Origin: Escherichia phage Es2
Sequence record: OR515477.1
Reading direction: 5' to 3' (one strand)
Length of the DNA stretch: 64,000 bases
How positions within the stretch are numbered: the first letter of the stretch is position 1; every line of letters begins with the position of its first letter. Positions 1-17,272 of this stretch are shown piece after piece. The notes below the pieces were generated by a model. That model saw only the letters and a list, made by a program, of their open reading frames with translations, ran no database searches and had not been told where the DNA came from. A program made the position numbers and the translations under genes.

Positions 1-23
1 ATAAATTGAACTGGAGAAGCAAC

Positions 24-1872: not shown

Positions 1873-1901
1873 TTGCTATTTTTCTTAATTATCTGTATAA
1901 T
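1873..1901 (+). promoter_or_regulatory. early-type sigma70 promoter (TTGCTA - 17 bp - TGTATAAT)
   Basis: -35 TTGCTA at 1873, extended -10 TGnTATAAT at 1894-1901, conserved AT-rich leader and GAGAAGG RBS. Confidence 0.7.
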
Positions 1902-1933
1902 ATATTTTATAAAGTGAAGAGAAGGAAAGCAAA

Positions 1934-2083
1934 ATGAAACACAAGATAGCCCAAGTTTTTATGGCATTATGGTGTATGCCAATAGCTATAACAGCATTTA
2001 ATCTAGATACTTTTACTATAGAAGAAAAATGTATCGGATTAGTTAGCGGCTTTAGTATGCTTGGCTTATCTTTGTTGTGGTTG
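1934..2083 (+). CDS. hypothetical 49-aa hydrophobic peptide (below ORF-track size cutoff)
   Basis: Hand translation MKHKIAQVFMALWCMPIAITAFNLDTFTIEEKCIGLVSGFSMLGLSLLWL; directly downstream of promoter and RBS. Confidence 0.5.
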
Positions 2084-2096
2084 AAGAAATAATATT

Positions 2097-2174
2097 CTCC
2101 GTGTAGCTCAGTTTGGCCAGAGCGTTTCGTTTGGGGCGATAGGGTCGGGGGTTCAAATCCTCCCACGGAGACCA
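2097..2174 (+). tRNA. tRNA-Pro (anticodon TGG)
   Basis: Acceptor CTCCGTG/CACGGAG, anticodon loop TTTGGGG, T-loop TTCAAAT, CCA. Confidence 0.65.
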
Positions 2175-2180
2175 AACAAT

Positions 2181-2258
2181 TGCGGGTTAGATCTCTGGTA
2201 GAGATCGCTAGTCTCATAAGCTAGAAAGAGGTAGGTTCGATTCCTGCACCCGCTTCCA
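2181..2258 (+). tRNA. tRNA-Met (anticodon CAT)
   Basis: Anticodon stem CTAGT/GCTAG with loop CTCATAA, T-arm GTAGG-TTCGATT-CCTGC, CCA. Confidence 0.65.
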
Positions 2259-2278
2259 TTTTAATAGAGGATTTCGAA

Positions 2279-2446
2279 ATGAAAGTATTTCGATTAGTAG
2301 TAAGTGACAAACGGTTAGGTAAGAATACATCAAAATCCCTACTCGCTCATTACGGTAAAAATTGGGATGAAGTAATGGCAGAGTTTAGTACTAATCACCC
2401 TTACTTGAAAGTTCACTCTATTAAAGAAGTATATAATGGTTACTAA
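2279..2446 (+). CDS. hypothetical 55-aa protein (below ORF-track size cutoff)
   Basis: Hand translation MKVFRLVVSDKRLGKNTSKSLLAHYGKNWDEVMAEFSTNHPYLKVHSIKEVYNGY; AGAGGA RBS; sits between two tRNAs. Confidence 0.45.
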   Translation: MKVFRLVVSDKRLGKNTSKSLLAHYGKNWDEVMAEFSTNHPYLKVHSIKEVYNGY

Positions 2447-2447
2447 T

Positions 2448-2526
2448 AGATCGCTAGCTCAATAGGTTTAGTAGCATCCGACTTTTAATCGGAAGGTTCT
2501 GGGTTCGAGTCCCAGGCGATCTACCA
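2448..2526 (+). tRNA. tRNA-Lys (anticodon TTT)
   Basis: Perfect acceptor AGATCGC/GCGATCT, anticodon stem TCCGA/TCGGA with loop CTTTTAA, T-arm CTGGG-TTCGAGT-CCCAG, CCA. Confidence 0.75.
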
Positions 2527-2530
2527 AATT

Positions 2531-2604
2531 GCTCGGTTAGTTTAATGGGAGAACCCCGTCTTTACACGGCGGTTGAGATAGTTCAATTCTATCACCGAGT
2601 ACCA
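2531..2604 (+). tRNA. tRNA-Val (anticodon TAC)
   Basis: Acceptor GCTCGGT/ACCGAGT, anticodon stem CCGTC/GGCGG with loop TTTACAC, T-arm GATAG-TTCAATT-CTATC, CCA. Confidence 0.65.
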
Positions 2605-2623
2605 ATTAACTCAAAATAAGGAA

Positions 2624-2983
2624 TTGCAAATGCAATTATCAAGCAAGATTCAAGGTTATTTCGGTCATGTAACAATGGAGTTCGCTATCTCTAAAGGTTG
2701 GGACTTCGAACAAGATTTAGCTGAGTTCTACAAAGATATTGATCTGAACGTACCGTACATGGGACTTTCTACTGGTCAGGAGATCACAGAAGCCGATGTA
2801 TTCAAGGCAAGTCAAGGTGAGGTAACACCTAGTTTTGCCGAGTTCTGGTTAGGCATTACGTTAAAAGAAGATGCACCAGATAGTGGTGTACTAATGTCTA
2901 GTATGCACTCTGGAAGTTCCGATTACCTTTTCATTAGCGATGTTAAGGAAATACAAGAAGTCTGCAAAAATGTACTTGCTTGA
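2624..2983 (+). CDS. hypothetical early protein
   Basis: Track ORF, 119 aa, AAGGAA RBS. Confidence 0.6.
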   Translation: MQMQLSSKIQGYFGHVTMEFAISKGWDFEQDLAEFYKDIDLNVPYMGLSTGQEITEADVFKASQGEVTPSFAEFWLGITLKEDAPDSGVLMSSMHSGSSDYLFISDVKEIQEVCKNVLA

Positions 2984-3004
2984 TGCTTAATTTCTTGTTA
3001 TAAT
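2976..3004 (+). promoter_or_regulatory. early-type sigma70 promoter feeding the tRNA block
   Basis: TTGCTT - 17 bp - TATAAT; leader contains hairpin GATGAGGAGAAATCCTCATC; no ORF follows, tRNAs downstream. Confidence 0.65.
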
Positions 3005-3242
3005 ATTTATATAAATTGATGAGGAGAAATCCTCATCATAGTTCACTAAGGTATTAGCTCGACCTAGGACTGGCTGCCAAAAAGCACGATCCCTACGATT
3101 CGGGAAAAGTTCTAGATTGGTCCACTAGATTCAGCGGCAACTGAATAGTGTATTGGGTTTGCGAGATGACGTAGTTCCTTCCGCTCTAAGCGAAGGTGCT
3201 GTAGTTACGCCGAGCTAATAGCCTTAGTAAACTAAAGAATTT

Positions 3243-3321
3243 GGGGAATGGGTCTGCATGGAGTGGACACCTCGCTTGCACCGAGGACATCAGAACGGTT
3301 CGATTCCGTTATTCTCCACCA
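3243..3321 (+). tRNA. tRNA-Ala (anticodon TGC)
   Basis: Acceptor GGGGAAT/ATTCTCC, anticodon stem CCTCG/CGAGG with loop CTTGCAC, T-arm AACGG-TTCGATT-CCGTT, CCA; 7-nt variable loop. Confidence 0.65.
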
Positions 3322-3326
3322 AATAC

Positions 3327-3403
3327 GCGTGATTGATGGAATGGGCATACATACCGTCCTTAGAAGTCGGGTTTTGAGGGTTCGAATCCCTTGTCACGCA
3401 CCA
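3327..3403 (+). tRNA. tRNA, anticodon TAG (Leu-decoding) with short variable loop
   Basis: Acceptor GCGTGAT/GTCACGC, anticodon loop CTTAGAA with one stem mismatch, T-arm GAGGG-TTCGAAT-CCCTT, CCA; isotype uncertain. Confidence 0.5.
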
Positions 3404-3515
3404 AATTTGATGGTCAGAGTAAATTAAACCTACTATCTCGGTTGAGCTGTTTTAATGGGTTCGAATCCCAGCGGGGCGTAACTGCCTGGTGTGATAGAGG
3501 CATCATCTTATTATT

Positions 3516-3606
3516 GGAAGAGCAAATCGAATTGGCGACGAAAACCGCTTGGAAAGTGGCTGACTGGTAAAACGGCTTGAGAGTTCAAATCTCTCCTCTT
3601 CCGCCA
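3516..3606 (+). tRNA. tRNA-Ser (anticodon GGA), type II
   Basis: Perfect acceptor GGAAGAG/CTCTTCC, anticodon loop TTGGAAA, long variable arm, T-arm GAGAG-TTCAAAT-CTCTC, CCA. Confidence 0.7.
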
Positions 3607-3618
3607 AACAATTTATAT

Positions 3619-3713
3619 GGTAGGTCAATCCAATGGCTGGCGCTGGACTCCGACTTGAAATCGGTTGATCGTAGTGATACGGTGTAAGGGTTCGATCCCC
3701 TTACCTACCTCCA
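3619..3713 (+). tRNA. tRNA-Ser (anticodon TGA), type II
   Basis: Perfect acceptor GGTAGGT/ACCTACC, anticodon loop CTTGAAA, long variable arm, T-arm AAGGG-TTCGATC-CCCTT, CCA. Confidence 0.7.
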
Positions 3714-4079
3714 AATCTTGAAGTATGCCGGAATCGGTAGACGGGGCTGCCTAAAAGGTTTATAGGGAACATCCACTCCCTGCAACATACCTCATAAAGC
3801 GGCTGAGATAAATGGTCTATCTCGTGAAGGTTCAAGTCCTTCTGCTTCTTGATACATCTATGGCTCAAAGTGTAACGGTGCTATTTGATGCTCTTGGTAA
3901 GACTTCCCCGACATGCGTTCGGGAGTAAGCTGCTAAGACTAGAGTAGAAGAGTTTCTGAGAGCCGCCACAATTGAAAATTCGTACTCGTCTTGAGCTGCG
4001 CGCAATAGGAGATAACTTGATTAGTATTCTAGAACATGCTAATTGAGGAAGGTTTCGCTAACCCTGCGAGTTTTCAATT

Positions 4080-4156
4080 GTGGCTATATCATAATTGGTT
4101 AATGATCCTGATTGTGAATCAGGCCTATGTGGATTCGAATTCCACTAGCCACCCCA
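4080..4156 (+). tRNA. tRNA-His (anticodon GTG)
   Basis: Perfect acceptor GTGGCTA/TAGCCAC, anticodon stem CCTGA/TCAGG with loop TTGTGAA, T-arm GTGGA-TTCGAAT-TCCAC, CCA. Confidence 0.8.
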
Positions 4157-4180
4157 AATTAACTTAAATAGGAAATAAAT

Positions 4181-4387
4181 ATGGCTGATTTCTGCAAACA
4201 ATGCTCCATTGATATGTGGGGTAAAGATACTGGTGATCTTTCTGGTTTGATTACAGAAGCTGAAGTTAAAGAAGGCTACGGTGCTGCTGTGATCTGCGAA
4301 GGATGCGGAGTTATTCGAGTAGATCATGAAGGCAAACGTTTAGAAGATCCAAAAAGTATTAAGAAGAAGGTTAGCCAAGTAGGTTAA
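4181..4387 (+). CDS. hypothetical CxxC-CxxC small protein
   Basis: Track ORF 68 aa, AGGAAA RBS; 3' end overlaps next tRNA by about 23 nt. Confidence 0.5.
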   Translation: MADFCKQCSIDMWGKDTGDLSGLITEAEVKEGYGAAVICEGCGVIRVDHEGKRLEDPKSIKKKVSQVG

Positions 4388-4440
4388 GGCTGGGGTCTCT
4401 GAAATCCTGATCAGTGGTTCGAATCCACTACCTTCTGCCA
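4365..4440 (+). tRNA. tRNA-Gln (anticodon CTG)
   Basis: Perfect acceptor AGAAGGT/ACCTTCT, anticodon loop CTCTGAA, T-arm AGTGG-TTCGAAT-CCACT, CCA. Confidence 0.65.
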
Positions 4441-4446
4441 AACAAT

Positions 4447-4524
4447 TGGGGATTAGCTTAGCTTGGCCTAAAGCTTCGGCCTTTGAAGTCGAGATCATTG
4501 GTTCAAATCCAATATCCCCTGCCA
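4447..4524 (+). tRNA. tRNA-Gln (anticodon TTG)
   Basis: Acceptor (T)GGGGAT/ATCCCCT, anticodon stem TCGGC/GTCGA with loop CTTTGAA, T-arm ATTGG-TTCAAAT-CCAAT, CCA. Confidence 0.65.
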
Positions 4525-4535
4525 GCTAAATTAAT

Positions 4536-4610
4536 GCGTGATTAGTTCAGTGGCTAGAATAACTGGCTTCCAACCAGTAGACACGAGTTCGACTCTCGTA
4601 TCCCGCACCA
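4536..4610 (+). tRNA. tRNA-Gly (anticodon TCC)
   Basis: Acceptor GCGTGAT/ATCCCGC (one mismatch), anticodon stem ACTGG/CCAGT with loop CTTCCAA, T-arm ACGAG-TTCGACT-CTCGT, CCA. Confidence 0.65.
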
Positions 4611-4624
4611 AATAAGGAAACGTT

Positions 4625-4846
4625 ATGCACGTTTTTGAGTTTCGTAATAAAAATACTGATAAGCGAGTTATCATTATTGGAGAAACATACCGAGCATATG
4701 AACAAACTGACGGCTCTGTTATCTTGAATGATGAGAAAGGAGGTTTTAGCTTTTATCCAGAAGAACCTTATGAAGAGTTTCGTACTAAGTTTCTTTTACC
4801 AGACTGGCTAGCAGTAGCCGAGCAACGAGAATCCGAAGATGGCTGA
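4625..4846 (+). CDS. hypothetical early protein
   Basis: Track ORF 73 aa, AAGGAAA RBS. Confidence 0.55.
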   Translation: MHVFEFRNKNTDKRVIIIGETYRAYEQTDGSVILNDEKGGFSFYPEEPYEEFRTKFLLPDWLAVAEQRESEDG

Positions 4847-5003
4847 TAACCTAAAATTAAGGGTCGACAAACAAAAGAAATACATTGAGGTTGAATTAGG
4901 CGAAGAACGATTAAAGCTAACTTTCGAGTTTCTTCAGCAGTTGGCTATGACAGTTATGACTGATAAGTCTCCTGTTATTGAAAAAGAAATCCCGTTGAAA
5001 TAA
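4839..5003 (+). CDS. hypothetical 54-aa protein (below ORF-track size cutoff)
   Basis: Hand translation MADNLKLRVDKQKKYIEVELGEERLKLTFEFLQQLAMTVMTDKSPVIEKEIPLK; start overlaps upstream stop (ATGGCTGA). Confidence 0.45.
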   Translation: MADNLKLRVDKQKKYIEVELGEERLKLTFEFLQQLAMTVMTDKSPVIEKEIPLK

Positions 5004-5013
5004 CGGGATCATC

Positions 5014-5088
5014 GCTCCTAAAGCATTGCTGGCGATGCAGTTGCCTTGTAAGCATCTGAACCGGGTTCGATTCCTGGTGGGAGCACCA
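5014..5088 (+). tRNA. tRNA-Thr (anticodon TGT)
   Basis: Acceptor GCTCCTA/TGGGAGC, D stem GCAT/ATGC, anticodon loop CTTGTAA, T-arm CCGGG-TTCGATT-CCTGG, CCA. Confidence 0.65.
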
Positions 5089-5103
5089 AATTTAAAAATT
5101 CAT

Positions 5104-5132
5104 TTGCTTTCTCTCTTATTTATTGTTATAAT
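5104..5132 (+). promoter_or_regulatory. early-type sigma70 promoter
   Basis: TTGCTT - 17 bp - TATAAT, then conserved leader ATAAATTAATGAGAGG. Confidence 0.7.
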
Positions 5133-5162
5133 ATTCATATAAATTAATGAGAGGGAAGCCAA

Positions 5163-5456
5163 ATGAAACGTTATCTTTCTGTTGTGTTCCAAACTGGTGG
5201 TCAACGCTATACTTACGAATTTCCTGGCTCTTGGAAGATCAAAGAAGGTGATCAAGTAGTAGTGTTAACACCGCGTGAGGGTTTTAAGGTAGTAACGGTT
5301 AAGCAAGTATTTCCAAAAGAGCGTGAACCAGCTAAAGGCATTCGCTATAAGATGATTCATGGTGTAGTTCGTCAAGTACCACGAGCGGAAGTCGAAATCA
5401 AAGTAGATAAAGATGGTAAACTTAAATATACCTCTTGCTTAGACGAGTTGCTATAA
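5163..5456 (+). CDS. hypothetical early protein
   Basis: Track ORF 97 aa, promoter and RBS upstream. Confidence 0.6.
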   Translation: MKRYLSVVFQTGGQRYTYEFPGSWKIKEGDQVVVLTPREGFKVVTVKQVFPKEREPAKGIRYKMIHGVVRQVPRAEVEIKVDKDGKLKYTSCLDELL

Positions 5457-5662
5457 TGAGGATTACTTTTACAGAAAAGATCATGAGTAATGGTGTTATG
5501 ATCATTACCGCATGGGATGGTAATCAGTGGTGTAGTGTTTCAGGTATTAAGCCTGAAGAACAAACACTAGATAATATCTCAAAGATTAAGCGAAGAATGA
5601 CAGAACGTGCACGACTTCCAGGTGCACCTAGAAATGGCAAACGTTCTGCTGCAAAATGTTAA
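5456..5662 (+). CDS. hypothetical early protein
   Basis: Track ORF 5435..5662 trimmed to in-frame ATG at 5456 that overlaps upstream stop (TAATG). Confidence 0.5.
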   Translation: MRITFTEKIMSNGVMIITAWDGNQWCSVSGIKPEEQTLDNISKIKRRMTERARLPGAPRNGKRSAAKC

Positions 5663-5663
5663 T

Positions 5664-5740
5664 GCTTCGGTAGCTTAGCGATCTAAAGCACTCGGCTGAT
5701 AACCGAGAGATCGGGGGTTTAAATCCCTCCCGGAGTACCA
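5664..5740 (+). tRNA. tRNA-Ile (anticodon GAT)
   Basis: Perfect anticodon stem CTCGG/CCGAG with loop CTGATAA, T-loop TTTAAAT, CCA. Confidence 0.65.
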
Positions 5741-5836
5741 AATTTAGGAATTAAGACTATGCGTCCAGGAAAGTTTAAAAAAGCTAATTGGTCTAAAGAG
5801 TATAAAGAATACTTACTTAGTCTAGTAAAACATAAT

Positions 5837-5912
5837 AGTTAGTTGGCAGAGTGGTTATGCACCTCCTTCATACGGAGCGACTACAGTGGTTCAAATCCAC
5901 TACTAACTACCA
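5837..5912 (+). tRNA. tRNA-Met (anticodon CAT), second copy; initiator/elongator/Ile2 not resolved
   Basis: Perfect acceptor AGTTAGT/ACTAACT, anticodon loop TTCATAC, T-arm AGTGG-TTCAAAT-CCACT, CCA. Confidence 0.65.
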
Positions 5913-5949
5913 TTAAAAGAGCTAGAGATAGCTAACTTTAGGAGCAGCT

Positions 5950-6144
5950 ATGTTAACAATTAAAATAATGTCAGCCAAGAATGGGGAACAGATTCATACA
6001 GGCAAAAGTGTAAGCTTTAATCCTAGAAATAAAAGACTGGCTATAGTTGGAGTAGACCAAGCCATCTTTTTAAAAGAAGATGAAGTAGCATATGTCATGA
6101 ACCAAACTGGTAAGACAGTTTCCGTATACTATGGAAAAGTATAA
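5950..6144 (+). CDS. hypothetical early protein
   Basis: Track ORF 64 aa, AGGAG RBS. Confidence 0.55.
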   Translation: MLTIKIMSAKNGEQIHTGKSVSFNPRNKRLAIVGVDQAIFLKEDEVAYVMNQTGKTVSVYYGKV

Positions 6145-6186
6145 AGAATAAATAGCTGAGCCAAATTCTAACATCGGGGAGATCTA

Positions 6187-6555
6187 ATGAAAGCATATCA
6201 AAACCTTAAATCTGGCGTAATTAATATTGTTCATAATAATCAGATCATTCAGCTATATTCCGATAATGGTGAACTTAAACAGAAAGTTCTAGTTGAAGAT
6301 CTAGAAGGTATCACACCTCACTTTGACCCTGAGGCCTTTCGCATTGTAGATGTGGAAGTGGTTCCTCAAATCGAAGGTGGTCAGCACCTAAATGTCAATG
6401 TATTAAGCCGTGATCAGCTTTTGGATGCGCAGAAACATCCTGAAAAATACCCTCAATTAACTATCCGTGTTTCAGGGTACGCTGTTCGATTTAATGCACT
6501 GACTCGTGAACAACAGAACGACGTTATTAGTCGTACATTTACTCAGGCGATGTAA
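6187..6555 (+). CDS. hypothetical early protein
   Basis: Track ORF 122 aa. Confidence 0.6.
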
Positions 6556-6636
6556 TGGGGTTTGGGTACGATTTCTCCCAGCTACGCAAGGTAGTCGAGC
6601 AAACTCCGTTTATCTCCCAAGTTTTAGGAGAAATGT

Positions 6637-6951
6637 GTGGATCGAGCATTAAGACGTCATCACAGGCAACGTGTAAAGAACAACCGCAAGAAGTACTGGA
6701 CAGTCTTTCCACATGAAGAAAGCCCTAAGCGGTTAGGTATTATCACTACTACTCCTTGCATCTGTTCTTGTTGGATGTGTGGGAACCCTCGCAAGTACTA
6801 TAAGAATAGTAAAGCAGGCATGAAAACCTCGGAGATCAGGAAAATGGAAGCGATGATTATGGGCATCTCAAATGATGAATTTGATGGCTTTGTAGGATTC
6901 GGAGAAGGAATCAGCTCAGGCTGTTTAGAAGATGAACGCCCCGACCTGTAA
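6637..6951 (+). CDS. hypothetical Cys-rich protein
   Basis: Track ORF 104 aa, CICSCWMCG motif. Confidence 0.5.
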   Translation: MDRALRRHHRQRVKNNRKKYWTVFPHEESPKRLGIITTTPCICSCWMCGNPRKYYKNSKAGMKTSEIRKMEAMIMGISNDEFDGFVGFGEGISSGCLEDERPDL

Positions 6952-6961
6952 TTAATAACAA

Positions 6962-6996
6962 ACCCCAGCTATTGAATAAGTAGTCTGGGGTTTTTC
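6962..6996 (+). terminator. intrinsic terminator
   Basis: Hairpin CCCCAG...CTGGGG followed by TTTTT. Confidence 0.6.
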
Positions 6997-7072
6997 TGTA
7001 TAAAGGTACATAATATATGTATAATAAAATTCATCCACATTAGGTTAATTTAAAAGACTTAATGGAGGTAAT

Positions 7073-7420
7073 ATGAGCCGTACTTATCGTAGACAATCTG
7101 GTGATCAGTGGTGGAAGTCTAAAGAACAATTCTCTCAAGAATATTCTTTCCTCAAAGAAAATGGCTACTGGATTCGTGTTATTTATGCCAAATCCTGGGA
7201 CGACATCAAAAAAGAAATGAAGGAAGCAACCATTCGTAATGAGAAAAAGGATGGTTATAACTGGAATTCCATTAGTAAGAATGTTAAGTGGCATTCTAAT
7301 AAAATGGTTCGTCAAGGGAATCGTCAAGAACTCCACCGCGTGATGAAAGATCCAGAAAATTACGACTATAATCGCGACCATGACATGCGTAAGCGTGGAT
7401 TATGGTGGTGCTATGACTAA
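7073..7420 (+). CDS. hypothetical early protein
   Basis: Track ORF 115 aa, GGAGG RBS. Confidence 0.6.
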   Translation: MSRTYRRQSGDQWWKSKEQFSQEYSFLKENGYWIRVIYAKSWDDIKKEMKEATIRNEKKDGYNWNSISKNVKWHSNKMVRQGNRQELHRVMKDPENYDYNRDHDMRKRGLWWCYD

Positions 7421-7437
7421 ATTCTGAAATAATTCAT

Positions 7438-7466
7438 TTGCTAAACCTCTCTTTTCTTGCTATAAT
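7438..7466 (+). promoter_or_regulatory. early-type sigma70 promoter
   Basis: TTGCTA - 17 bp - TATAAT, conserved leader TTTATAAATTGATAAGAGAGG. Confidence 0.7.
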
Positions 7467-7496
7467 ATATTTATAAATTGATAAGAGAGGTTTGAA

Positions 7497-7778
7497 ATGA
7501 AAAATCGCCTAGACTGTGCCATTCATGTTCTTGAACATGATGTTACGGGAACCTGTATGTCTTACCACGAAGCAGGTCGTTTAATTAAAGAACGCGTGGC
7601 AGATGTGTGCGGATTGAAGATTACTGCTGAGGAAGCTGATGATCTTTTAGGTCAAGCACTGGAGAAAACCGAAATGTTCCTCTGCGATTCTTGTTCTTGG
7701 TGGTGTGAAGCTCACGAACGTTCTTTCAACGATTATGATGTATGTCGTGATTGTAGTGGGGAGGATAAAGATGAATAA
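7497..7778 (+). CDS. hypothetical Cys-rich protein
   Basis: Track ORF 93 aa; CDSCSWWC and CRDCSG motifs. Confidence 0.55.
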   Translation: MKNRLDCAIHVLEHDVTGTCMSYHEAGRLIKERVADVCGLKITAEEADDLLGQALEKTEMFLCDSCSWWCEAHERSFNDYDVCRDCSGEDKDE

Positions 7779-8067
7779 GTTTATTATTGCACTGATGATC
7801 TCCGCAGTTAGTTTCGGTTCTCTGGCGTCTACCAAAGTTTCTATGAAAAATGGTAATGTTAAAGTCCAACAGAACGGTATTATTACTGAGTATGGTAAAG
7901 TTCGTGATGTTAAAGAACGTAATGGTAAGGTAGAAATCTATACTAATAAAAACTTCTCTACTCCAGCCGTTACTATTAGCAAACGCGGTGAAATAACCAC
8001 TCAACGTACTAATAGCTCCAGTTCTTTTACTTGTCGTTATGATTGCGACTTTGAAGGGGAAGAGTAA
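7771..8067 (+). CDS. hypothetical secreted protein (signal peptide)
   Basis: Track ORF 7705..8067 trimmed to ATG at 7771 with GAGGA RBS; N-terminus MNKFIIALMISAVSFGSLAS. Confidence 0.55.
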   Translation: MNKFIIALMISAVSFGSLASTKVSMKNGNVKVQQNGIITEYGKVRDVKERNGKVEIYTNKNFSTPAVTISKRGEITTQRTNSSSSFTCRYDCDFEGEE

Positions 8068-8068
8068 C

Positions 8069-8377
8069 ATGGAAAAGAACGTGAAAAAACTAAACATCAA
8101 CAGCACAGTGCAGATTCCAGCAACTAAGGATGTTTTAACATTCCTACGGAGTGAAAACGCTCAGTTTTGGCATGATCATGTTGTAAAGAACGGTAGTACT
8201 CCAGATGTAGTTTACTTTGCTAAAAAACGTATCGAAGAATATAAAGATCCAGAGATTAAAGATGGGATGATAACTATGCAATTGTGGGTAGCCATGAATA
8301 CGTTTGGACCTACTATGAGTCTAGGAGTTACTCCACTGTTTACTAATATTCTAATTAATGAAAAGGATCTGAAATGA
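8069..8377 (+). CDS. hypothetical early protein
   Basis: Track ORF 8039..8377 trimmed to ATG at 8069 with GAAGAG RBS. Confidence 0.5.
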   Translation: MEKNVKKLNINSTVQIPATKDVLTFLRSENAQFWHDHVVKNGSTPDVVYFAKKRIEEYKDPEIKDGMITMQLWVAMNTFGPTMSLGVTPLFTNILINEKDLK

Positions 8378-8658
8378 TTATCTCTCCATTTGCTCTTTGG
8401 TTCGTCATCGGATCTATAGTAGCTATTTACAGCTTGGTTGATGATCTGTATATTTCTAAGAATAAAGATGTAATATTATACATTATACATAAAACTCGAC
8501 CGTTAGATCTGCCTCCTCTTGATGATAAAACATTACTGAGATGTGCTAGATCTATGATATTTATTGTGGATATTCTTCTAGGCCCAACATCTGTGTTTTT
8601 CTTTTATAGAAAGACTCGTAATATGAAAAAATTTAAAGCTGAAATGCAGAATACCTAA
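8374..8658 (+). CDS. hypothetical membrane protein
   Basis: Track ORF 94 aa; two hydrophobic segments; ATGA overlap. Confidence 0.55.
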   Translation: MIISPFALWFVIGSIVAIYSLVDDLYISKNKDVILYIIHKTRPLDLPPLDDKTLLRCARSMIFIVDILLGPTSVFFFYRKTRNMKKFKAEMQNT

Positions 8659-8768
8659 AGAACTCGCGTAGGACCGAGTTGCGTCACCTGCAACTGTTAC
8701 GGATAAGGGAGTCGTGCCCCTTAGTGCGGTAAGTGGTGAGGTGGCTGCTAGCCCTAACTGGAGATAAT

Positions 8769-9113
8769 ATGACTATATTACTAATTCTTGTTACAACTTG
8801 GTTTTTAATCGGTGCTGGATATGCGATAGCTATTATTAGACATTTGGATGAACATTCTGCTGAATGGTTTGTTAAGTATCTACGTATTGATGGTCAAGAA
8901 CAGAAGTTTAAAGACGAAAAGCAGAAAAAAGCAGTAAATAATATGACAGCCAAAGAATGCTTGTTCTACATGCGTATTGTAGGGTTCTTTGGACTATTAG
9001 TTGCTGGCCCAATTGGTTCTACCATTGCCCCATATAAAGAAACAGTTGCTGACATCAAATTGTGGAGAAATGCAGGGGTACTGCACAAAGCTAGAAAAAC
9101 TAATATTACATAA
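8769..9113 (+). CDS. hypothetical membrane protein
   Basis: Track ORF 8733..9113 trimmed to ATG at 8769 with GGAGA RBS; hydrophobic N-terminus. Confidence 0.55.
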   Translation: MTILLILVTTWFLIGAGYAIAIIRHLDEHSAEWFVKYLRIDGQEQKFKDEKQKKAVNNMTAKECLFYMRIVGFFGLLVAGPIGSTIAPYKETVADIKLWRNAGVLHKARKTNIT

Positions 9114-9156
9114 GATTGACACTAAGTCAGCTTACTAGCAAAAGCAAATAATGACA

Positions 9157-9193
9157 AAGCCCAGCCTGCACTTTTGCGACTGGGCTATTTTTA
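9157..9193 (+). terminator. intrinsic terminator
   Basis: Hairpin GCCCAG...CTGGGC followed by T-run. Confidence 0.6.
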
Positions 9194-9207
9194 TAATAAA
9201 ATTTTAG

Positions 9208-9236
9208 TTGCTTAGATGCCCAAACTTTTGTATAAT
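9208..9236 (+). promoter_or_regulatory. early-type sigma70 promoter
   Basis: TTGCTT - 17 bp - TGTATAAT, RBS AAGAGGA. Confidence 0.7.
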
Positions 9237-9267
9237 ATGTTTATAGATTGAGGCAAGAGGATTAAAT

Positions 9268-9966
9268 ATGAGGATTATTTCTAAGTTCGCCGATGTGTAT
9301 GATTTGCAGAACAGTTTGTTTGACCCAGATCGTGTGTGGGAACGTAAAACTGAGGAGTTACTGGTTAAAGTAACCGATGATGCAGAAAAGAACATTGTGC
9401 ATACTCGCCAGGTATTTCGTGATGGTTCGCTATCTTTCCGTGGTGATTTCGAATACTTTGTAAACCCACTATTTGTTGCAGGTGAAGTTTACTGGTTACA
9501 CGAGCTGTACTGCTGGCATCCAGCATTTAGCTTCAAAACGTTCAACCTCGACACTATGTTCGATAAAATGGAAGAGATGGGATTGCATGCTCGCTCTTAC
9601 TTAATGGATAAGAGTCGCGGAGATGTTCGTGAAACAATGCGTGATTTGCTCGCTGAAGCAAAACCTAAAGCAGAACGTATCTTATCCGAACTGCGTGTAC
9701 CGATTGCATATGTGAAAGGTATTAAGAAGAACGATAACGATGATGTTCGTAACTTCGTGATTCAGACTAACATTCGTTTCCATCAGTCAGGTATTCCGTG
9801 GCAGGAAATTGAAAGTAACTTATACCGTTTACACCAAGTTCTCGAACAGTATATCTTCGGTGTACTAGGAACTGGTGAGCCTGATATGATTAAAGTATCA
9901 GATAAAGACAGGTTAGCAGCGCATGGATTTGATACAAAAACTTCTTTCAGGAATATGGCAAGGTAA
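9268..9966 (+). CDS. hypothetical early protein
   Basis: Track ORF 232 aa. Confidence 0.65.
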   Translation: MRIISKFADVYDLQNSLFDPDRVWERKTEELLVKVTDDAEKNIVHTRQVFRDGSLSFRGDFEYFVNPLFVAGEVYWLHELYCWHPAFSFKTFNLDTMFDKMEEMGLHARSYLMDKSRGDVRETMRDLLAEAKPKAERILSELRVPIAYVKGIKKNDNDDVRNFVIQTNIRFHQSGIPWQEIESNLYRLHQVLEQYIFGVLGTGEPDMIKVSDKDRLAAHGFDTKTSFRNMAR

Positions 9967-10372: not shown

Positions 10373-10656
10373 AACCAGAGCCTTCTCATGAGTTAAAGCA
10401 AGCTCATGTAGACTGGCCTAAAGGACTTCAACCTTGTAGCTTTGACTTTAAGTTTGAAAAGAAATTAGCTACAAATGGGGAAGATGGCGTAGTAGTTGTT
10501 GTACCATATAAAGATTGGAATGCAAAAGCAAAATGTGAGGAAGCAGTTTACTCTTACATTTCACGACTGACTGGTATGGTTTGCTTCTATCGCCAAGATT
10601 TACAAGAAAAACGTTGCTTAGTTTACTATCCACCAATTAACAATAGGAAAGATTAA
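10303..10656 (+). CDS. putative lipoprotein
   Basis: Track ORF 117 aa; signal peptide ending in lipobox-like ITGC. Confidence 0.5.
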   Translation: MFNWKLGILLAAAITITGCAEEIKPEPSHELKQAHVDWPKGLQPCSFDFKFEKKLATNGEDGVVVVVPYKDWNAKAKCEEAVYSYISRLTGMVCFYRQDLQEKRCLVYYPPINNRKD

Positions 10657-11408: not shown

Positions 11409-11420
11409 TCAAGGATCGCT

Positions 11421-12020: not shown

Positions 12021-12030
12021 GTAGTTTTAA

Positions 12031-12062
12031 GCCAGGGTTTAACGACCCTGGCTTTTCTTTTA
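12031..12062 (+). terminator. intrinsic terminator
   Basis: Hairpin GCCAGGG...CCCTGGC followed by TTTTCTTTT. Confidence 0.65.
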
Positions 12063-12123
12063 TCTAAAATTCTTCTTGACAACGACAAAATTTTATGCTC
12101 CAGAAGTGATCTTTAAAAACACA

Positions 12124-12152
12124 TTGTAATTTTCCTCCAAAATTAGTATAAT
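12124..12152 (+). promoter_or_regulatory. sigma70 promoter upstream of lysis genes
   Basis: TTGTAA - 17 bp - TATAAT; a consensus TTGACA also lies at 12076. Confidence 0.55.
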
Positions 12153-12176
12153 GGTACTGGTTAGAGGAGGTTACAA

Positions 12177-12833
12177 TTGGAAAAGTTCTTACAATTATTA
12201 ACGGTACTGCTCCAAGAAGCGAAAGATCCAGCATCGCTTCTTAAACGTCTGCTAACTATCTTAGTTGCTGTCATTATTTTCTTATTTGTTAGTAATACTA
12301 GCGAGGTGATGTCATTCTTAAAGACTTTCTCCACGTCTGCGGTTCTACAGGATGTTCAAACTCAAAGGATAGATAACTTTCCTAATGTAGCTAGAGAAAA
12401 AAGCATGGTACTCTTTTCTCAAACGGGTGCGGATGCTGTTTTTGTCGTCAAGTATAAACCCGATGCCATTAATGATTATTCTAACATTATTGCATGGGAA
12501 AGCAATGCGCAATTAGATAGGGCTGACTTGGCCGATAAAGCGGTAAATAAAACGTCTGAGCTATATAGACGTCACTTGGAAGGCTTTAACTACGCATCGG
12601 ATTTAAGTGTAAAAGTAAATAAATACATGGGGTTAGATATACCTGCGTTTAAGAACGTTACTTTTAATTACATATACACTTGTCCATATTTCAATCTAAA
12701 CAATATCTATGCTGGATATATTGGTATTGCTTGGAAAGATAATCCTGTAGATGCAGCCGATTCTGAGAAATTTAACGAGTATTTAACAAAGCTCTGTTCC
12801 CCACAACAGAGATCTTTAGGTAGATCAATATGA
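12177..12833 (+). CDS. hol: holin (putative), TTG start
   Basis: 218 aa; TM segment near N-terminus; directly upstream of endolysin; GAGGAGG RBS before TTG. Confidence 0.6.
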   Translation: MEKFLQLLTVLLQEAKDPASLLKRLLTILVAVIIFLFVSNTSEVMSFLKTFSTSAVLQDVQTQRIDNFPNVAREKSMVLFSQTGADAVFVVKYKPDAINDYSNIIAWESNAQLDRADLADKAVNKTSELYRRHLEGFNYASDLSVKVNKYMGLDIPAFKNVTFNYIYTCPYFNLNNIYAGYIGIAWKDNPVDAADSEKFNEYLTKLCSPQQRSLGRSI

Positions 12834-13243
12834 GTTTTAAATTTGGTAAAAATAGTGAAAAACAATTAGCTACCGTTAAGCCAGAGCTACAAAAAGTAGC
12901 TCGTAGAGCTTTAGAATTATCTCCATATGATTTCACGATCGTACAGGGTATTCGTACAGTAGCACAAAGTGCCCAGAATATTGCTAATGGTACTTCATTT
13001 TTAAAAGATCCTAGTAAAAGCAAGCATATTACTGGGGATGCCCTTGATTTTGCTCCATATATTAATGGCAAAATTGATTGGAATGATTTAGAAGCATTTT
13101 GGGCAGTTAAAAAGGCTTTTGAACAAGCAGGTAAAGAACTAGGCATTAAACTTCGTTTTGGTGCTGATTGGAATGCTTCGGGAGACTATCACGATGAAAT
13201 AAAACGTGGTACCTATGATGGCGGTCATGTCGAACTAGTTTAA
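12830..13243 (+). CDS. lys: endolysin, L-alanyl-D-glutamate peptidase type
   Basis: 137 aa; H..D..H zinc-peptidase-like motif positions (HITGDALDF, DGGHVE); size matches my recollection of T5 Lys. Confidence 0.75.
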   Translation: MSFKFGKNSEKQLATVKPELQKVARRALELSPYDFTIVQGIRTVAQSAQNIANGTSFLKDPSKSKHITGDALDFAPYINGKIDWNDLEAFWAVKKAFEQAGKELGIKLRFGADWNASGDYHDEIKRGTYDGGHVELV

Positions 13244-13254
13244 TTGATAACTGA

Positions 13255-13278
13255 GGCGGGAATATTCCCGCCTTTTTA
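13255..13278 (+). terminator. intrinsic terminator
   Basis: Hairpin GGCGGG-AATATT-CCCGCC followed by TTTTT. Confidence 0.7.
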
Positions 13279-13320
13279 GGCAAAGGGGGCTTTAATAATT
13301 TTTGAAGATAGGAGAAAGCC

Positions 13321-13737
13321 ATGTTTGCAGAACTATTCACTATGATGCTGCTAGGTATCTGGAAAATAAGTCTAGTAGTATTCGTTTTAATGATAGTTTT
13401 TACTATCCTTGCATTAACTACCCGAAATAGCTTACTAATAAAGGTTATTCACGGACTAGAGTATATAATTATGGGTTCATTCGGCGTTTGTAAATGCAAT
13501 TGCCATAGAGATACGAAATATTGTTGGTTATGGATGGAACTAGAGAATCCTATATCCATAGCTTTGGCTGTTTCATTCGGCATGATTCTTATGGCCCTTA
13601 CTCTAGCATTAATTCCTTTGATGTTAGCTGGGGGAGTTACAGCGTATTTCACCCTTTTCTCCCCGATACTTATGTACTCAATTTACCCAATAACTATGTA
13701 TCTAGTTAGGAAAAGATTTATACATGCAGTAGATTAA
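13321..13737 (+). CDS. hypothetical multi-pass membrane protein
   Basis: Track ORF 138 aa, several hydrophobic segments. Confidence 0.55.
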   Translation: MFAELFTMMLLGIWKISLVVFVLMIVFTILALTTRNSLLIKVIHGLEYIIMGSFGVCKCNCHRDTKYCWLWMELENPISIALAVSFGMILMALTLALIPLMLAGGVTAYFTLFSPILMYSIYPITMYLVRKRFIHAVD

Positions 13738-13750
13738 GATAAAAAAGTAG

Positions 13751-13779
13751 TTGACTTTTAGCCCTAGTTATTATATAAT
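13751..13779 (+). promoter_or_regulatory. early-type sigma70 promoter
   Basis: TTGACT - 17 bp - TATAAT, leader CATAAATTAGTTAAGAGAGG. Confidence 0.7.
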
Positions 13780-13812
13780 ATATACATAAATTAGTTAAGA
13801 GAGGTATATATT

Positions 13813-14244
13813 ATGTCTGATCGTTTCTATACTCAAATGGCGGAACATTTTCGTATACCACATTACGAGCTAAACATTGCACTCCGTGATCATGACTCTC
13901 CTGAGTACAAAAAGCTCGAAAAGAAAGCGGAAAAATCTATTGATACAAAGGTAGGTGCATCTATGTCTAAGGGCAAAAAGTTAACTCGTCTTGATCTTAA
14001 TAAAATTTTAACTGAACTTTTGGGTACTGATATTGAAGGTGCTAAATTACCGCTTCTTGTACTAGAGACTATGATTAAAAAGGTCAAAAATAAAGAGTAT
14101 AAAAAGGTAGAAGTCCCAGAAGGCAGATTAAAGGCTCCTTATCAGGAAGCATTAACCGAGTGTTTGGGTGTAAATCTTGATCTGAGCACCGCAACCGTAA
14201 AAACTATGAAAAACTTCTTAGAGGCCATTAATAACTATGAGTAA
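13813..14244 (+). CDS. hypothetical early protein
   Basis: Track ORF 143 aa. Confidence 0.6.
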   Translation: MSDRFYTQMAEHFRIPHYELNIALRDHDSPEYKKLEKKAEKSIDTKVGASMSKGKKLTRLDLNKILTELLGTDIEGAKLPLLVLETMIKKVKNKEYKKVEVPEGRLKAPYQEALTECLGVNLDLSTATVKTMKNFLEAINNYE

Positions 14245-14527
14245 ATTAGTATATCTATTGAAAGGTTCTACTTGCAACCCTTGCAAAATGTTTGAGCCAG
14301 TATTTGATAAAGTAGTCAATGAATATAATTTGGAAGTCCATAAAGAGACTGATAATACAGAATTAATGCAGAAATTTGGCGTACGCCAAGTTCCTGTAGT
14401 AGTTCTGGCAGATCGCTTACCTAATGGTCGAGTAGAAGCTAATCATATTTTGATTGGACGTCAGCTTCGTAAAGAAACTATGCACGAAGCTATTAAAAAT
14501 TTCCTGGATGATAATCCAGAGGATTAA
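14237..14527 (+). CDS. thioredoxin/glutaredoxin-like protein
   Basis: 96 aa; CNPC active-site-like motif near N-terminus. Confidence 0.55.
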   Translation: MSKLVYLLKGSTCNPCKMFEPVFDKVVNEYNLEVHKETDNTELMQKFGVRQVPVVVLADRLPNGRVEANHILIGRQLRKETMHEAIKNFLDDNPED

Positions 14528-14534
14528 TAAACCA

Positions 14535-14566
14535 AGCCTGATCTTAGCGGATCAGGCTTTTATTTT
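14535..14566 (+). terminator. intrinsic terminator
   Basis: Hairpin AGCCTGATC...GATCAGGCT followed by T-run. Confidence 0.65.
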
Positions 14567-14568
14567 AC

Positions 14569-14597
14569 TTGCTTTCAGCTAAAAATTTTGGTATAAT
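14569..14597 (+). promoter_or_regulatory. early-type sigma70 promoter
   Basis: TTGCTT - 17 bp - GGTATAAT, leader TATAAATTGATTGGAGG. Confidence 0.7.
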
Positions 14598-14624
14598 ACT
14601 TATATAAATTGATTGGAGGATTAA

Positions 14625-14870
14625 ATGTTAGCGGAACAAGCAAAACGTTTAGCTAGGATAAATAGAGCTGCTCTTCTCAAGAGCAGAAAGAAGCCGTATA
14701 GATACGTTAAAAGACGGATTCTAGCTTCTGTAGAGGCTGGGGGTTCTTTTATACAATTTAATCGTGATGAAATTAGTTATGAAGCTATAAAAGCCCTCTA
14801 TAAAGATGGTTATACTCTAAAACTATCAAATAATTATGGTACAACTATTTTAAATGTTATTTGGGAATAA
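14625..14870 (+). CDS. hypothetical early protein
   Basis: Track ORF 81 aa. Confidence 0.55.
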   Translation: MLAEQAKRLARINRAALLKSRKKPYRYVKRRILASVEAGGSFIQFNRDEISYEAIKALYKDGYTLKLSNNYGTTILNVIWE

Positions 14871-15736
14871 TTATGAAAAAAGAATTTAATGTACATAAAA
14901 CACTAGTAGTACCTGATGATGTTAACTTATTCTTTGTTGGTGATATTCATGGATGCAACGATTTACTAGAAGATGCACTACAATTAGCTGGATATAACGG
15001 CAAGAAAGATTGCGTTGTATGCGTGGGAGATTTAATTGATCGAGGCACGCAGAACCTACAAGTTTTAGCTAAATTCCTGTATAATCCACGCTTTATCAGT
15101 GTCCGTGGTAATCATGACCAATTTATGATTGTGGGAGATTGGGCTAACTGGATGTATAACGGTGGTATGTGGGCTATGAATGAACTAGATGCAGATACCA
15201 TTAAAAATATTGCCGAAGACATGGCTGAAAAAATGCCAGTATTCCTAACTGTTAAACATCGCGGCAAGAAGTATGGTGTTGTTCATGGTGGTGTACCTTT
15301 TACATACAAAGAATGTGGTAATGAAGTAGAAACCCCAGTATGGGATAATCTTATTGCACAAGTAGAAGCAGCTAAGGAAGACCCACACGACCATCCTGGA
15401 TACCATGTTGAGCCATACTTATGGGATCGAGATGTAATCCAAGAAATAGGTTTTCACTTAGCTAAAAATGGTGAAGAACACTCATATTTCCAGCGTTATG
15501 CAGGGTTTAAAGAGAAATACATGGTAGAAGTACCTCCAGTTAATGGGGTAGACTTTGTATTTCATGGACATACCGGAGTACCTTACCCGATTTTATACCA
15601 GAACCGTGTTTATCTTGATACTGGCGGTGTTTTCAACGGGCAGTTGACGGTTGCGCAAGTTAATGATGAAACTGGGAAAATCACAACATTTACCACGCTT
15701 CGAGAAGATAGCTGTGGTGTACAGAGGATTCTTTAA
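14861..15736 (+). CDS. Ser/Thr protein phosphatase (calcineurin-like metallophosphatase)
   Basis: 291 aa; GDIHGC, GDLIDRG and RGNHD motifs. Confidence 0.75.
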   Translation: MGIIMKKEFNVHKTLVVPDDVNLFFVGDIHGCNDLLEDALQLAGYNGKKDCVVCVGDLIDRGTQNLQVLAKFLYNPRFISVRGNHDQFMIVGDWANWMYNGGMWAMNELDADTIKNIAEDMAEKMPVFLTVKHRGKKYGVVHGGVPFTYKECGNEVETPVWDNLIAQVEAAKEDPHDHPGYHVEPYLWDRDVIQEIGFHLAKNGEEHSYFQRYAGFKEKYMVEVPPVNGVDFVFHGHTGVPYPILYQNRVYLDTGGVFNGQLTVAQVNDETGKITTFTTLREDSCGVQRIL

Positions 15737-16023
15737 TGAATGATAGAATGAAAGAAGTACAAGAAGAATTACGAGCAATGCGTATTGATGCCCTTCGTTG
15801 GAGAGCATTAGTTAATGCTTTCGTCAAAGGAGATACCGGAGTAATATATTCTGGAATAGCAGTCAATTTTTGTTTTAATTCTCCTGCTGAAATAGAGATA
15901 GAAACAAGGCTTACTACCTACCTTAATGAGGTAGACCTTAAGGAAGGAGAGACTCCCGGGGAGTTTAAAACTAGAGTATTAACTACCTGGGTTGATAATT
16001 TAATACAAAAAAGGAGTAAGTGA
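15736..16023 (+). CDS. hypothetical early protein
   Basis: Track ORF 95 aa. Confidence 0.55.
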   Translation: MNDRMKEVQEELRAMRIDALRWRALVNAFVKGDTGVIYSGIAVNFCFNSPAEIEIETRLTTYLNEVDLKEGETPGEFKTRVLTTWVDNLIQKRSK

Positions 16024-16613
16024 TGAAGGTTAAATTCTGGTCAGACTTGCACTTAGACCACCCTGGAGCACTACGTTTCCGTCCGTGGTTTAAGAACATG
16101 AAAGAGCACGATGAGTATATTCTAGATACTTTATCCAAGCATATTGGTAAACGAACAAAACTTATTTTGCTAGGAGATATTGCAGTAGGTCGTGAAGGTC
16201 TGGCCAAATTAAAGTCGGTTATCCACAATGTCCCTAATCAACTCATTATGGGTAATCATGATGCGGAGCGTCAAGGACTGAGTATTAGGGACTTAGCGGA
16301 AGTTTATGACGATATTCAAGCTCTAGGCAAACAGACTGGAGGTGGCAAAAAGTTTTGGCTATCTCACTGCCCTTTGCACCCTAATGAACTTCGTGGCAAA
16401 CTAAATATTCACGGACATGTACATACTACTTCTTTACGTGATCCACGTTATATTAATGTCTCATTTGAAATGAGTAGAACTCCAATTCCACTAGAGGATA
16501 TTGTGTCTGGTAAGTTTACTAGTTACGATAGAGTGGTTAATTGTACTACCGGCGAGGTATTACAAATAGGAGAAGACGTAGCTGCTGTATTGCGTGGCGA
16601 TATAAATGTCTAA
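16020..16613 (+). CDS. metallophosphoesterase (second copy)
   Basis: 197 aa; GDIAVG and GNHD motifs, GHVH near C-terminus. Confidence 0.6.
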   Translation: MMKVKFWSDLHLDHPGALRFRPWFKNMKEHDEYILDTLSKHIGKRTKLILLGDIAVGREGLAKLKSVIHNVPNQLIMGNHDAERQGLSIRDLAEVYDDIQALGKQTGGGKKFWLSHCPLHPNELRGKLNIHGHVHTTSLRDPRYINVSFEMSRTPIPLEDIVSGKFTSYDRVVNCTTGEVLQIGEDVAAVLRGDINV

Positions 16614-16720
16614 GTATATAGCTAGGGCTATTATTAAACGAATTATACAAGTGATAGCAATACTTATAGTTATTTGTATTGCCATTGGCACAGGACTAGG
16701 CATTTTAATTAAAAGTTTTA

Positions 16721-16749
16721 TTTGCTAAAATGCCTAAATTTCTGTATAA
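16721..16749 (+). promoter_or_regulatory. early-type sigma70 promoter
   Basis: TTGCTA - 17 bp - TGTATAAT, leader TTTATAAATTGATGAGAAGG. Confidence 0.7.
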
Positions 16750-16780
16750 TTACTTTATAAATTGATGAGAAGGAATAAAA

Positions 16781-17212
16781 ATGAACAAAGTCGATAAAGC
16801 CTTAGTTTTCGCAGCAGCAGATAAGTTTGAACAAGTCAAGGCAACTTTCCGAACCTTGTTCCAGTCTTACGTTCAAGATAAGTCTAATCCTATTTCTGAA
16901 CGCTTAATGGTTTGGGAATGTCATGCTTGCAATGCCCTGCTAATTGCGGATTATCGTAGTGATATAGATAAAGATCTCTGTGAAATCCTCATCCCTGAGG
17001 AAGCAGAACGTTATCAGCTAATCTCTTTTCAAGATTTGGCAGAGCACATAATCCCTGATGATCTTTGGGATAAATACTATGGTGATCCTGAAGATGAGGG
17101 GATGACTCCAGAAGCATGTATTGAGTTAATCTGTAAGGATCATCCTGAAATTGCAGAAAAATTTGAAAAAGTTTTTGCTTCTGAGTTCTCTGGTGTTGTT
17201 AACGATTGGTAA
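16781..17212 (+). CDS. hypothetical early protein
   Basis: Track ORF 143 aa. Confidence 0.6.
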   Translation: MNKVDKALVFAAADKFEQVKATFRTLFQSYVQDKSNPISERLMVWECHACNALLIADYRSDIDKDLCEILIPEEAERYQLISFQDLAEHIIPDDLWDKYYGDPEDEGMTPEACIELICKDHPEIAEKFEKVFASEFSGVVNDW

Positions 17213-17228
17213 GTAATTAAAAAATTCA

Positions 17229-17257
17229 GTTGCTTTAAGCCTTAAAATTCTGTATAA
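17229..17257 (+). promoter_or_regulatory. early-type sigma70 promoter
   Basis: TTGCTT - 17 bp - TGTATAAT, leader TCATAAATTAATGAGAGAGG. Confidence 0.7.
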
Positions 17258-17272
17258 TAAGTTCATAAATTA

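Follow-up and report, generated by a model that had tools for sequence, protein, structure and literature searches.

What are the promoter-like units that recur in front of small genes in Escherichia phage Es2 (OR515477.1), and what is the AT-rich box that follows their -10 hexamers? The question comes from a first-pass annotation of 64,000 nucleotides (nt) of this phage, the whole stretch being called the window here, which described between positions 1873 and 17257 (the range) at least 10 near-identical promoter-leader cassettes and described the box, with the core ATAAATT, as more than a promoter needs and perhaps a shared regulatory or processing site. Our results indicate that the cassettes are very probably sigma-70 promoters of the early class in a T5-like phage, that each runs directly into a very short mRNA leader, and that the box is probably the transcription start site together with the first transcribed bases. 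The repeats are real and were correctly read as promoters, but the units belong to the well-described T5 early promoter family, which makes this an ordinary finding.

Nine of the ten copies listed for the range proved to be true members of one family, with further copies outside the range, while the copy assigned to the open reading frame (ORF) at 12177 does not belong to it. The window holds nine matches to the pattern TTGCT-N18-TATAAT-N6-ATAAATT with at most two mismatches, whereas dinucleotide shuffles gave an expectation of 0.03 and a maximum of one match. The exact string TATAAT-N6-ATAAATT likewise occurred nine times against 0.01 expected. All cassette copies are co-directional with the genes and lie on the coding strand. 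A pattern-free repeat search placed the copies in families D2-D5, with lengths of 37-75 nt and identities of 60-81%. The word "near-identical" was nevertheless too strong, since the mean pairwise identity over -50..+25 was 59% (range 48-75%), compared with 27% for random pairs.

Ten start-aligned copies gave the consensus tAAAAaTttA-TTGCTt-(17)-TATAAT-At.Ttt-ATAAATTgAtgAgagg, a layout of conserved blocks with variable spacers between them. The information content of these ten sequences, calculated without small-sample correction and over a background of about 0.3 bit per position, was 9.8 bits for the -35, 10.3 for the -10, 13.9 for +1..+10, and 11.6 for the A-rich block at -46..-36 that opens the consensus, a block also found in Niu 2012 (PMC3326045). 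A 17-bp spacer and TATAAT were present in all nine box-bearing copies of the range, as had been proposed, and the -35 was TTGCTw in eight of the nine, the copy at 13751 having TTGACT instead. The extended -10 could not be kept as a family feature, with canonical TGnTATAAT in only four of nine copies (2976, 5104, 7438, and 14569), TG directly abutting TATAAT in another four, and neither in the last. ATAAATT followed TATAAT by 6 nt in six range copies; ATAGATT and ATAAAGT occurred as variants, and ATAAAGT stood 7 nt from the -10. Eight range copies carried a purine-rich Shine-Dalgarno (SD) sequence, in line with the GAGAGG-type ribosome-binding site described earlier, and a start codon 21-27 nt beyond +1 (25 nt for the leader from 9243, by reading the sequence), so that the SD would lie 8-14 nt after a shared AU-rich 5' end in the early mRNA leaders; the copy at 2976 has no ORF. 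The gene start previously given at 17273 sits at +9, inside the leader of the last copy, and the start at 17291 is preferred because it is preceded by an SD and gives the same gene length as in the T5 orthologue ORF028 (252 nt).

Each range copy aligned to a T5 site that one or more of the T5 records list as an early promoter, at 83-99% identity over 240 nt centred on the predicted start (from -57 onward for the 2976 copy), and this bears out the promoter-plus-leader reading. The orthologous sites in AY587007 are labelled "putative early promoter" (T5P8-P14, P16, and P17), and at seven early promoters of that record the segment from the -10 to the ribosome-binding site is annotated as repeat b (TATAATATTTATATAAATTGATGAG) or repeat c (TGTATAATATATTCATAAATTTGAGAGAG). 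The other T5 record, AY543070, names promoters P11, P13a, P13b, and P14b at sites matching Es2 positions (Table 1), with promoter features of 75 nt that reach about +20 in these alignments. The 70-mer of promoter N25 was 100% identical to T5 63118-63187, annotated as T5P33 and as repeat c copy 6, and has the layout TTGCTT-N17-TATAAT-AGATTC-ATAAATTTGAGAGAGGAG. In the record of phage AKFV33 (HQ665011), orthologous sites are labelled "promoter" by similarity to the T5 consensus TTGCTT (N17-18) TATAATA, and its genome paper reported 32 promoters with TTGCTw and TATAATA separated by 17-18 bp and AT-rich stretches at -43 (AAAAATT) and +1 (TAAATT) (Niu 2012, PLoS One 7:e34585, PMC3326045). The repeat family, including its +1 block, is thus already known from GenBank annotation and from the AKFV33 genome paper.

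These relationships agree with the genomic setting. Megablast of positions 1800-9800 matched 563 phage records, the closest relatives being Escherichia phage IME178 (98.3%) and vB_EcoS_AKFV33 (96.4%), both Tequintavirus, and by its sequence the window is that of a T5-like phage of this genus. Positions 1-22500 on the plus strand correspond to T5 34.7-11.8 kb, the early region with the tRNA cluster, which is read on the T5 minus strand, and ARAGORN located 16 tRNAs within 423-5912. Compared with T5, Es2 lacks some homing-endonuclease insertions and carries a few additional small ORFs.

Table 1. Positions of the cassettes, of related or contrasting promoters, and of T5 RNA orthologues in the Es2 window.
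Feature	Coordinates	Strand	-35	TG before -10	-10	+1 and box	SD and start codon	T5 counterpart
Edge-cut cassette, +1..+24 only	1..24	+				ATAAATTGAACTGGAGAAGCAAC	ATG 25	1-20 100% identical to final 20 nt of promoter P14b (AY543070); T5P18 (AY587007)
Cassette 1	1854..1933	+	TTGCTA 1873-1878		TATAAT 1896-1901	1909 (ATAAAGT), 7-nt discriminator	AAGGA; ATG 1934, 52-aa ORF	P13a (AY543070), 89% over 1854-1928; T5P17, 83% over 240-nt flank
Cassette 2, no ORF	2955..3038	+	TTGCTT 2976-2981	TGT	2999-3004	3011 (ATAAATTGAT)		P13b (AY543070), 91% over 2955-3030
Cassette 3	5084..5162	+	5104-5109	TGT	5127-5132	5139	GAGAGGG; ATG 5163	P11 (AY543070), 95% over 5084-5157; T5P16 in AY587007
Cassette 4	7418..7496	+	TTGCTA 7438-7443	TGC	7461-7466	7473	AGAGAGG; ATG 7497	T5P14 and repeat b copy 1
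Cassette 5	9188..9267	+	9208-9213		9231-9236	9243 (ATAGATTGAG; ATAGATT)	AAGAGG; ATG 9268	T5P13, 94% over 240 nt
Cassette 6	13731..13812	+	TTGACT 13751-13756	none	13774-13779	13786	AGAGAGG; ATG 13813	T5P11 (AY587007), 99%
Cassette 7	14549..14624	+	14569-14574	TGG	14592-14597	14604	GGAGG; ATG 14625	T5P10
Cassette 8	16702..16780	+	TTGCTA 16722-16727		16745-16750	16757	AAGGA; ATG 16781	T5P9
Cassette 9	17210..17290	+	17230-17235		17253-17258	17265	GAGAGAGG; ATG 17291	T5P8, 99%
Full cassette beyond range	34858..34940	-	TTGCTT 34920-34915	TGC	34897-34892	34885	ATG 34860	
Variant copy	22550..22592	+	TTGCAT, N18		TATAAT	aatctc, then ATAGATT	no SD or ORF nearby	no match
Variant copy, pre-early / terminal-repeat region	27248..27290	-	TAGCCA (poor), N18		TATAAT	N6, then ATAAATT		92% to unannotated site 5999(+) and terminal-repeat copy 117612(+)
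Holin promoter	12124..12176	+	TTGTAA, N17		TATAAT	ggtact, then GGTTAGAGGAGG; no ATAAATT box	18-nt leader; TTG 12177	T5P12
RNA3 orthologue	736..808							RNA3
RNA2 orthologue	1602..1726							RNA2
RNAIV orthologue	1745..1847							RNAIV
RNA2H orthologue	3052..3223	+						RNA2H, 96% over 172 nt
RNA1 orthologue	3717..3861							RNA1
RNAI orthologue	3862..3968							RNAI
RNAIII orthologue	3973..4078							RNAIII

The box occupies +1 to about +10 in a fixed register 6 nt (once 7) after the -10, and this register points to its role. In N25, TATAATAGATTCAT covers positions -12 to +2 (Klimuk 2020, PMC7472727), which places +1 at the first A of ATAAATT, and since the register of the box in Es2 matches this mapped start, the box is probably the start site and the first ~10 transcribed bases. 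RNA polymerase protects promoter DNA from -50 to +20 (PMC12464699), so that the box lies inside the protected region and not, as had been supposed, beyond what a promoter needs. According to Hsu & Han 2025 (PMC12464699, citing Kammerer 1986), replacement of +3..+20 of N25 ("antiDSR") lowered full-length RNA to one tenth and raised abortive products. A correlation with productive yield is also known for initial transcribed sequences rich in purines (PMC10911233). The box and GAGAGG together make up the same +1..+20 segment to which this downstream-region effect belongs (Kammerer et al. 1986; Hsu et al.); these experiments concern N25 only, and the Es2 copies are likened to it by sequence.

It is reasonable to suggest that the host RNA polymerase holoenzyme would bind a composite signal made of the A-rich, UP-element-like block at about -46..-36, TTGCTw, the 17-bp spacer, TATAAT (sometimes with TGn), and an AT-rich discriminator, and would initiate 7 nt after the -10, on the first base of ATAAATT. 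Start-site choice and melting could be favoured by the AT-richness of the box and by its fixed Y(-1)/A(+1) context, and the box with the purine-rich GAGAGG may set the efficiency with which polymerase escapes from promoters that would be very tightly bound and presumably strong in Es2 as well. GAGAGG would double as the SD, so that each unit could yield a leader of 21-27 nt of the form AUAAAUUGAUGAGAGG...AUG, with the exception of the 2976 copy, from which a stable RNA and the tRNA block would be transcribed behind a 5' hairpin.

Some results weigh against this interpretation. A generic sigma-70 scan of the window was not enriched in promoter-like sites, with 46 where 59.5 were expected; such a scan misses TTGCTT, which matches TTGACA at only three of six positions, and is uninformative for this family. 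It is thus orthology and the family-specific pattern, rather than generic scoring, that support the reading. The information-content figures come from only 10 sequences, and a search for a start-site map or transcriptome of a T5-like phage found none among the papers covered. N25 is rate-limited at escape even with its native sequence (PMC12464699), and since many initial transcribed sequences allow escape, a near-invariant and class-specific heptamer would be only partly explained by an escape role.

How far the box is tied to one promoter class could be seen in T5 itself and in its relatives. TATAAT-N6-ATA[AG]A[TG]T occurs 22 times in T5, with 19 sites in the early region in gene direction, one at the early llp promoter, and two that represent one terminal-repeat site, whereas the promoters annotated as pre-early (P1-P5) or late (P39, P40, and P42) are all without it. 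Relatives were scanned with only the -35 and -10 as anchors, and in the orthologous promoters of Stitch (~77% DNA identity) and Sugarland (~65%) ATAAATT is retained together with the -35 and -10 hexamers amid diverged spacers and discriminators, a pattern that suggests purifying selection on these three blocks. Vibrio phage River4 belongs to another subfamily, and at 14 sites in this phage TATAAT is followed after exactly 6 nt by ATA(A/G); its copy at 20906 has its start 19 nt before tRNA-Cys, and its copy at 21055 stands within the tRNA block, with neither an SD nor a start codon close by. The retention of the box at such RNA-only promoters, to which the 2976 copy of Es2 also belongs, argues for a role at the level of transcription or of the 5' end and not of translation. 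In IMG/VR, matches to the full pattern fell mostly on contigs of 104-128 kb, the T5-like size range, these contigs being known by size alone. A TTGA conserved near +7 of early promoters was reportedly described by Gentz and Bujard in 1985.

The first-pass annotation had taken the ORF-less copy at 2976 to head the tRNA block with a hairpin at the 5' end of the transcript, and this part was supported, since T5 shows the same order of P13b, RNA2H, and tRNA-Ala. AY587007 gives the site no label beyond "repeat b copy 3", but AY543070 names it promoter P13b and the AKFV33 record has it as "promoter". The predicted transcript has a 9-bp hairpin with a GAAA loop at +7..+28 (3017-3038); the 50-nt fold of this hairpin and a small second stem reached -14.8 kcal/mol (z = -3.2), and the fold of 3011-3245 had z = -5.55. 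Hairpin variants in relatives are few, including one A-C mismatch in T5, and covariation is uninformative either way. The RNA2H orthologue, labelled "stable RNA with unknown functions", is followed by tRNA-Ala at 3243, and from this arrangement RNA2H would be the first product of the transcript and tRNA-Ala the next. Seven T5 RNA orthologues in all (85-99% identity) are interspersed with the tRNA genes; T5 labels six of them as stable RNAs with unknown functions and RNA3 as a putative tRNA-like RNA. None of the seven reached the Rfam gathering score, and in a scan of 1-24000 the tRNAs were the sole Rfam matches, with no leader or cis-regulatory RNA family.

The copy at 12177 is a promoter of a different type. 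Its site is only 40% identical to the cassette family, its -35 differs, and the box is absent (Table 1), and the ORF that it precedes encodes a T-type holin (Phage_holin_T, Pfam E = 2e-113). The holin promoter likewise lacks the box in Klebsiella phage Sugarland and Vibrio phage River4, and this shared absence suggests a separate expression class for the holin/endolysin operon.

The class restriction of the box bears most directly on the possibility that it is mainly a class-specific regulatory determinant, through which a phage factor acting on the RNA polymerase-promoter complex would switch off early promoters and spare those for late and lysis genes. The idea itself is not new, it is compatible with the early-promoter reading, and the RNA polymerase-binding protein gpT5.026 or an early-shut-off factor could be the reader of the box. 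The confinement of the box to early-class T5 promoters, its absence from the holin promoters of three phages, its retention across subfamilies with different hosts, and the statement in the literature that the T5 class-switching mechanism is unknown all fit such a role, and gpT5.026 weakens RNA polymerase binding to the -5/+2 non-template segment, with a gpT5.026 mutant over-producing early RNA. We nevertheless regard it as unlikely, because the box shows no consistent dyad or repeat symmetry (by inspection, AT-only palindromes around +1 shift their centre between copies), the strict register to the -10 is what a start-site or initial-transcribed-sequence role predicts, and Klimuk et al. assign the class difference to the discriminator (ATATT) and not to transcribed bases (PMC7472727). 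The more specific proposal that the +1..+10 block (ATAAATTGA) marks promoters as early across Demerecviridae, read by a phage factor that times early shut-off, seems to us about as unlikely, or slightly more so. If true, it would explain the conservation of the block from coliphage T5 to Vibrio Thalassavirus, its presence at tRNA-only promoters, and its absence from lysis, late, and pre-early promoters. The strict conservation of the start block and its restriction to the early class bear on the mechanism of T5 temporal switching.

It is less probable still that the box acts as RNA, with the common 5' end AUAAAUU(G/A)A serving as a translation enhancer, stability determinant, or processing signal. 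All early mRNAs would share this AU-rich end ahead of a strong SD, and the 2976 transcript has its 5' hairpin and a first 41 nt upstream of the mapped RNA2H that must be removed; nevertheless, the box is equally conserved at stable-RNA and tRNA-only promoters without a start codon, which disfavours a translation or processing role and led to the rejection of translation enhancement as its main role. Only seven nucleotides at the very 5' end would make a poor target for an endonuclease, a processing-site role is without support, and Rfam gave no family match in the region. A role of the cassettes as recombination modules, whose alikeness would promote the shuffling of small ORFs, is highly improbable and was rejected. 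The region is mosaic among T5-like phages, and cassettes are touched by two of the junctions: in AKFV33 the box of the 14569 copy (window 14610-14620) is directly followed by an inserted ORF of 477 bp, and Es2 has, relative to T5, an extra ORF at 2624-2983 between tRNA-Val and the 2976 copy, with a junction (2605-2954) that ends at -57 of that copy. However, only five of 66 unique synteny breakpoints from 36 related loci fell within -70..+40 of a cassette start, and this shows no enrichment, given that cassettes make up ~5% of the sequence and, by rough count, ~13% of gene junctions; orthologous copies are more alike than paralogous ones and hence give no sign of gene conversion, and most indels are homing-endonuclease or small-ORF insertions. 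Chance matches in AT-rich intergenic DNA have practically no probability: the window has only ~39% GC and its generic sigma-70 matches are not enriched, as chance would allow, but the two pattern counts given above refute this explanation, and the orientation, spacing, and position upstream of genes are fixed and the sites are conserved in relatives.

The surroundings of the other copies give some further detail on the early promoters. A terminator-like hairpin at about 9150-9190 (read from the sequence) precedes cassette 5, and a terminator at 14534-14559 lies upstream of the -35 of cassette 7. The ORFs behind cassettes 8 and 9 encode a DUF7020 and a DUF7179 protein, respectively. Beyond the range, the copy at 34879-34920(-) fits the pattern perfectly and heads a lipoprotein gene (lipoprotein signal, LPAM_1), with the same position and gene type as T5P41, the early promoter of llp, while its flanks gave no alignment to T5. 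The variant at 22550 points into repeat-rich non-coding DNA that extends to 24300, with TCTAGAA and GGCGGTT motifs and repeat families D6, D7, D9, and D10, and 22550-24300 is probably the terminal-repeat boundary region. The variant site at 27248-27290(-) is flanked by an inverted repeat (CTAACTA...TAGTTAG), with DnaA-box-like TTATCCACA motifs just downstream (27150-27215). The 3' end of the ORF upstream contains a near-consensus promoter at 20120-20182(+), TTGACG-N17(TGg)-TATAAT-aagttt-TCAAAGTTAAGA, behind which come GGAG and a GTG start codon (20180); the start block of this promoter resembles the River4 variant ATAAAGTTGAGA.

Some database records also deserve comment. Short records labelled "Listeria phage LM 4-14-1 / 4-11-1" matched 13650-17350 at 94-95%, and a "Campylobacter phage C13" record matched a short stretch within it at 84%; these look like mislabelled or contaminant sequences. 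In AY587007, several tRNA features at about 28.5-37 kb overlap promoters, repeats, or coding sequences, such as tRNA-Val 31934-32007 and repeat b copy 3, and they appear displaced by ~75 nt relative to AY543070 once the coordinate offset between the records is allowed for, which suggests coordinate errors in the AY587007 annotation.

For the annotation of Es2, the analysis adds nine probable start sites (the +1 positions of cassettes 1-9 in Table 1), corrects one gene start to 17291, sets the holin promoter apart as another type, and ties the ORF-less copy to the stable RNA2H/tRNA transcript.

T5 early promoters are textbook strong promoters, and N25 among them is a standard model of promoter escape. 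The early promoters of T5 (PN25 and the T5P6-P38/P41 set of Wang et al. 2005) have the same architecture and orthologous positions as the Es2 copies, and nothing essential differs between them; only the copies at 22550 and 34879-34920 are without a T5 orthologue at the sequence level. In AKFV33, the same sites are annotated as promoters, and an extra ORF stands between the 14569 cassette and its gene, unlike in Es2. T7 A1 and other strong early phage sigma-70 promoters are likewise very-high-affinity promoters for host RNA polymerase with purine-rich initial transcribed sequences, the T7 A1 transcript starting with AUCGAGAGGG, but T7 A1 has no ATAAATT start block and forms no multi-copy family heading small operons. 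The T4-type promoter/stem-loop cassettes (PeSLs), which mediate modular shuffling, resemble the Es2 units as repeated early-promoter cassettes between small variable ORFs, whereas the T5-type cassettes have neither breakpoint enrichment nor an obligatory stem-loop.

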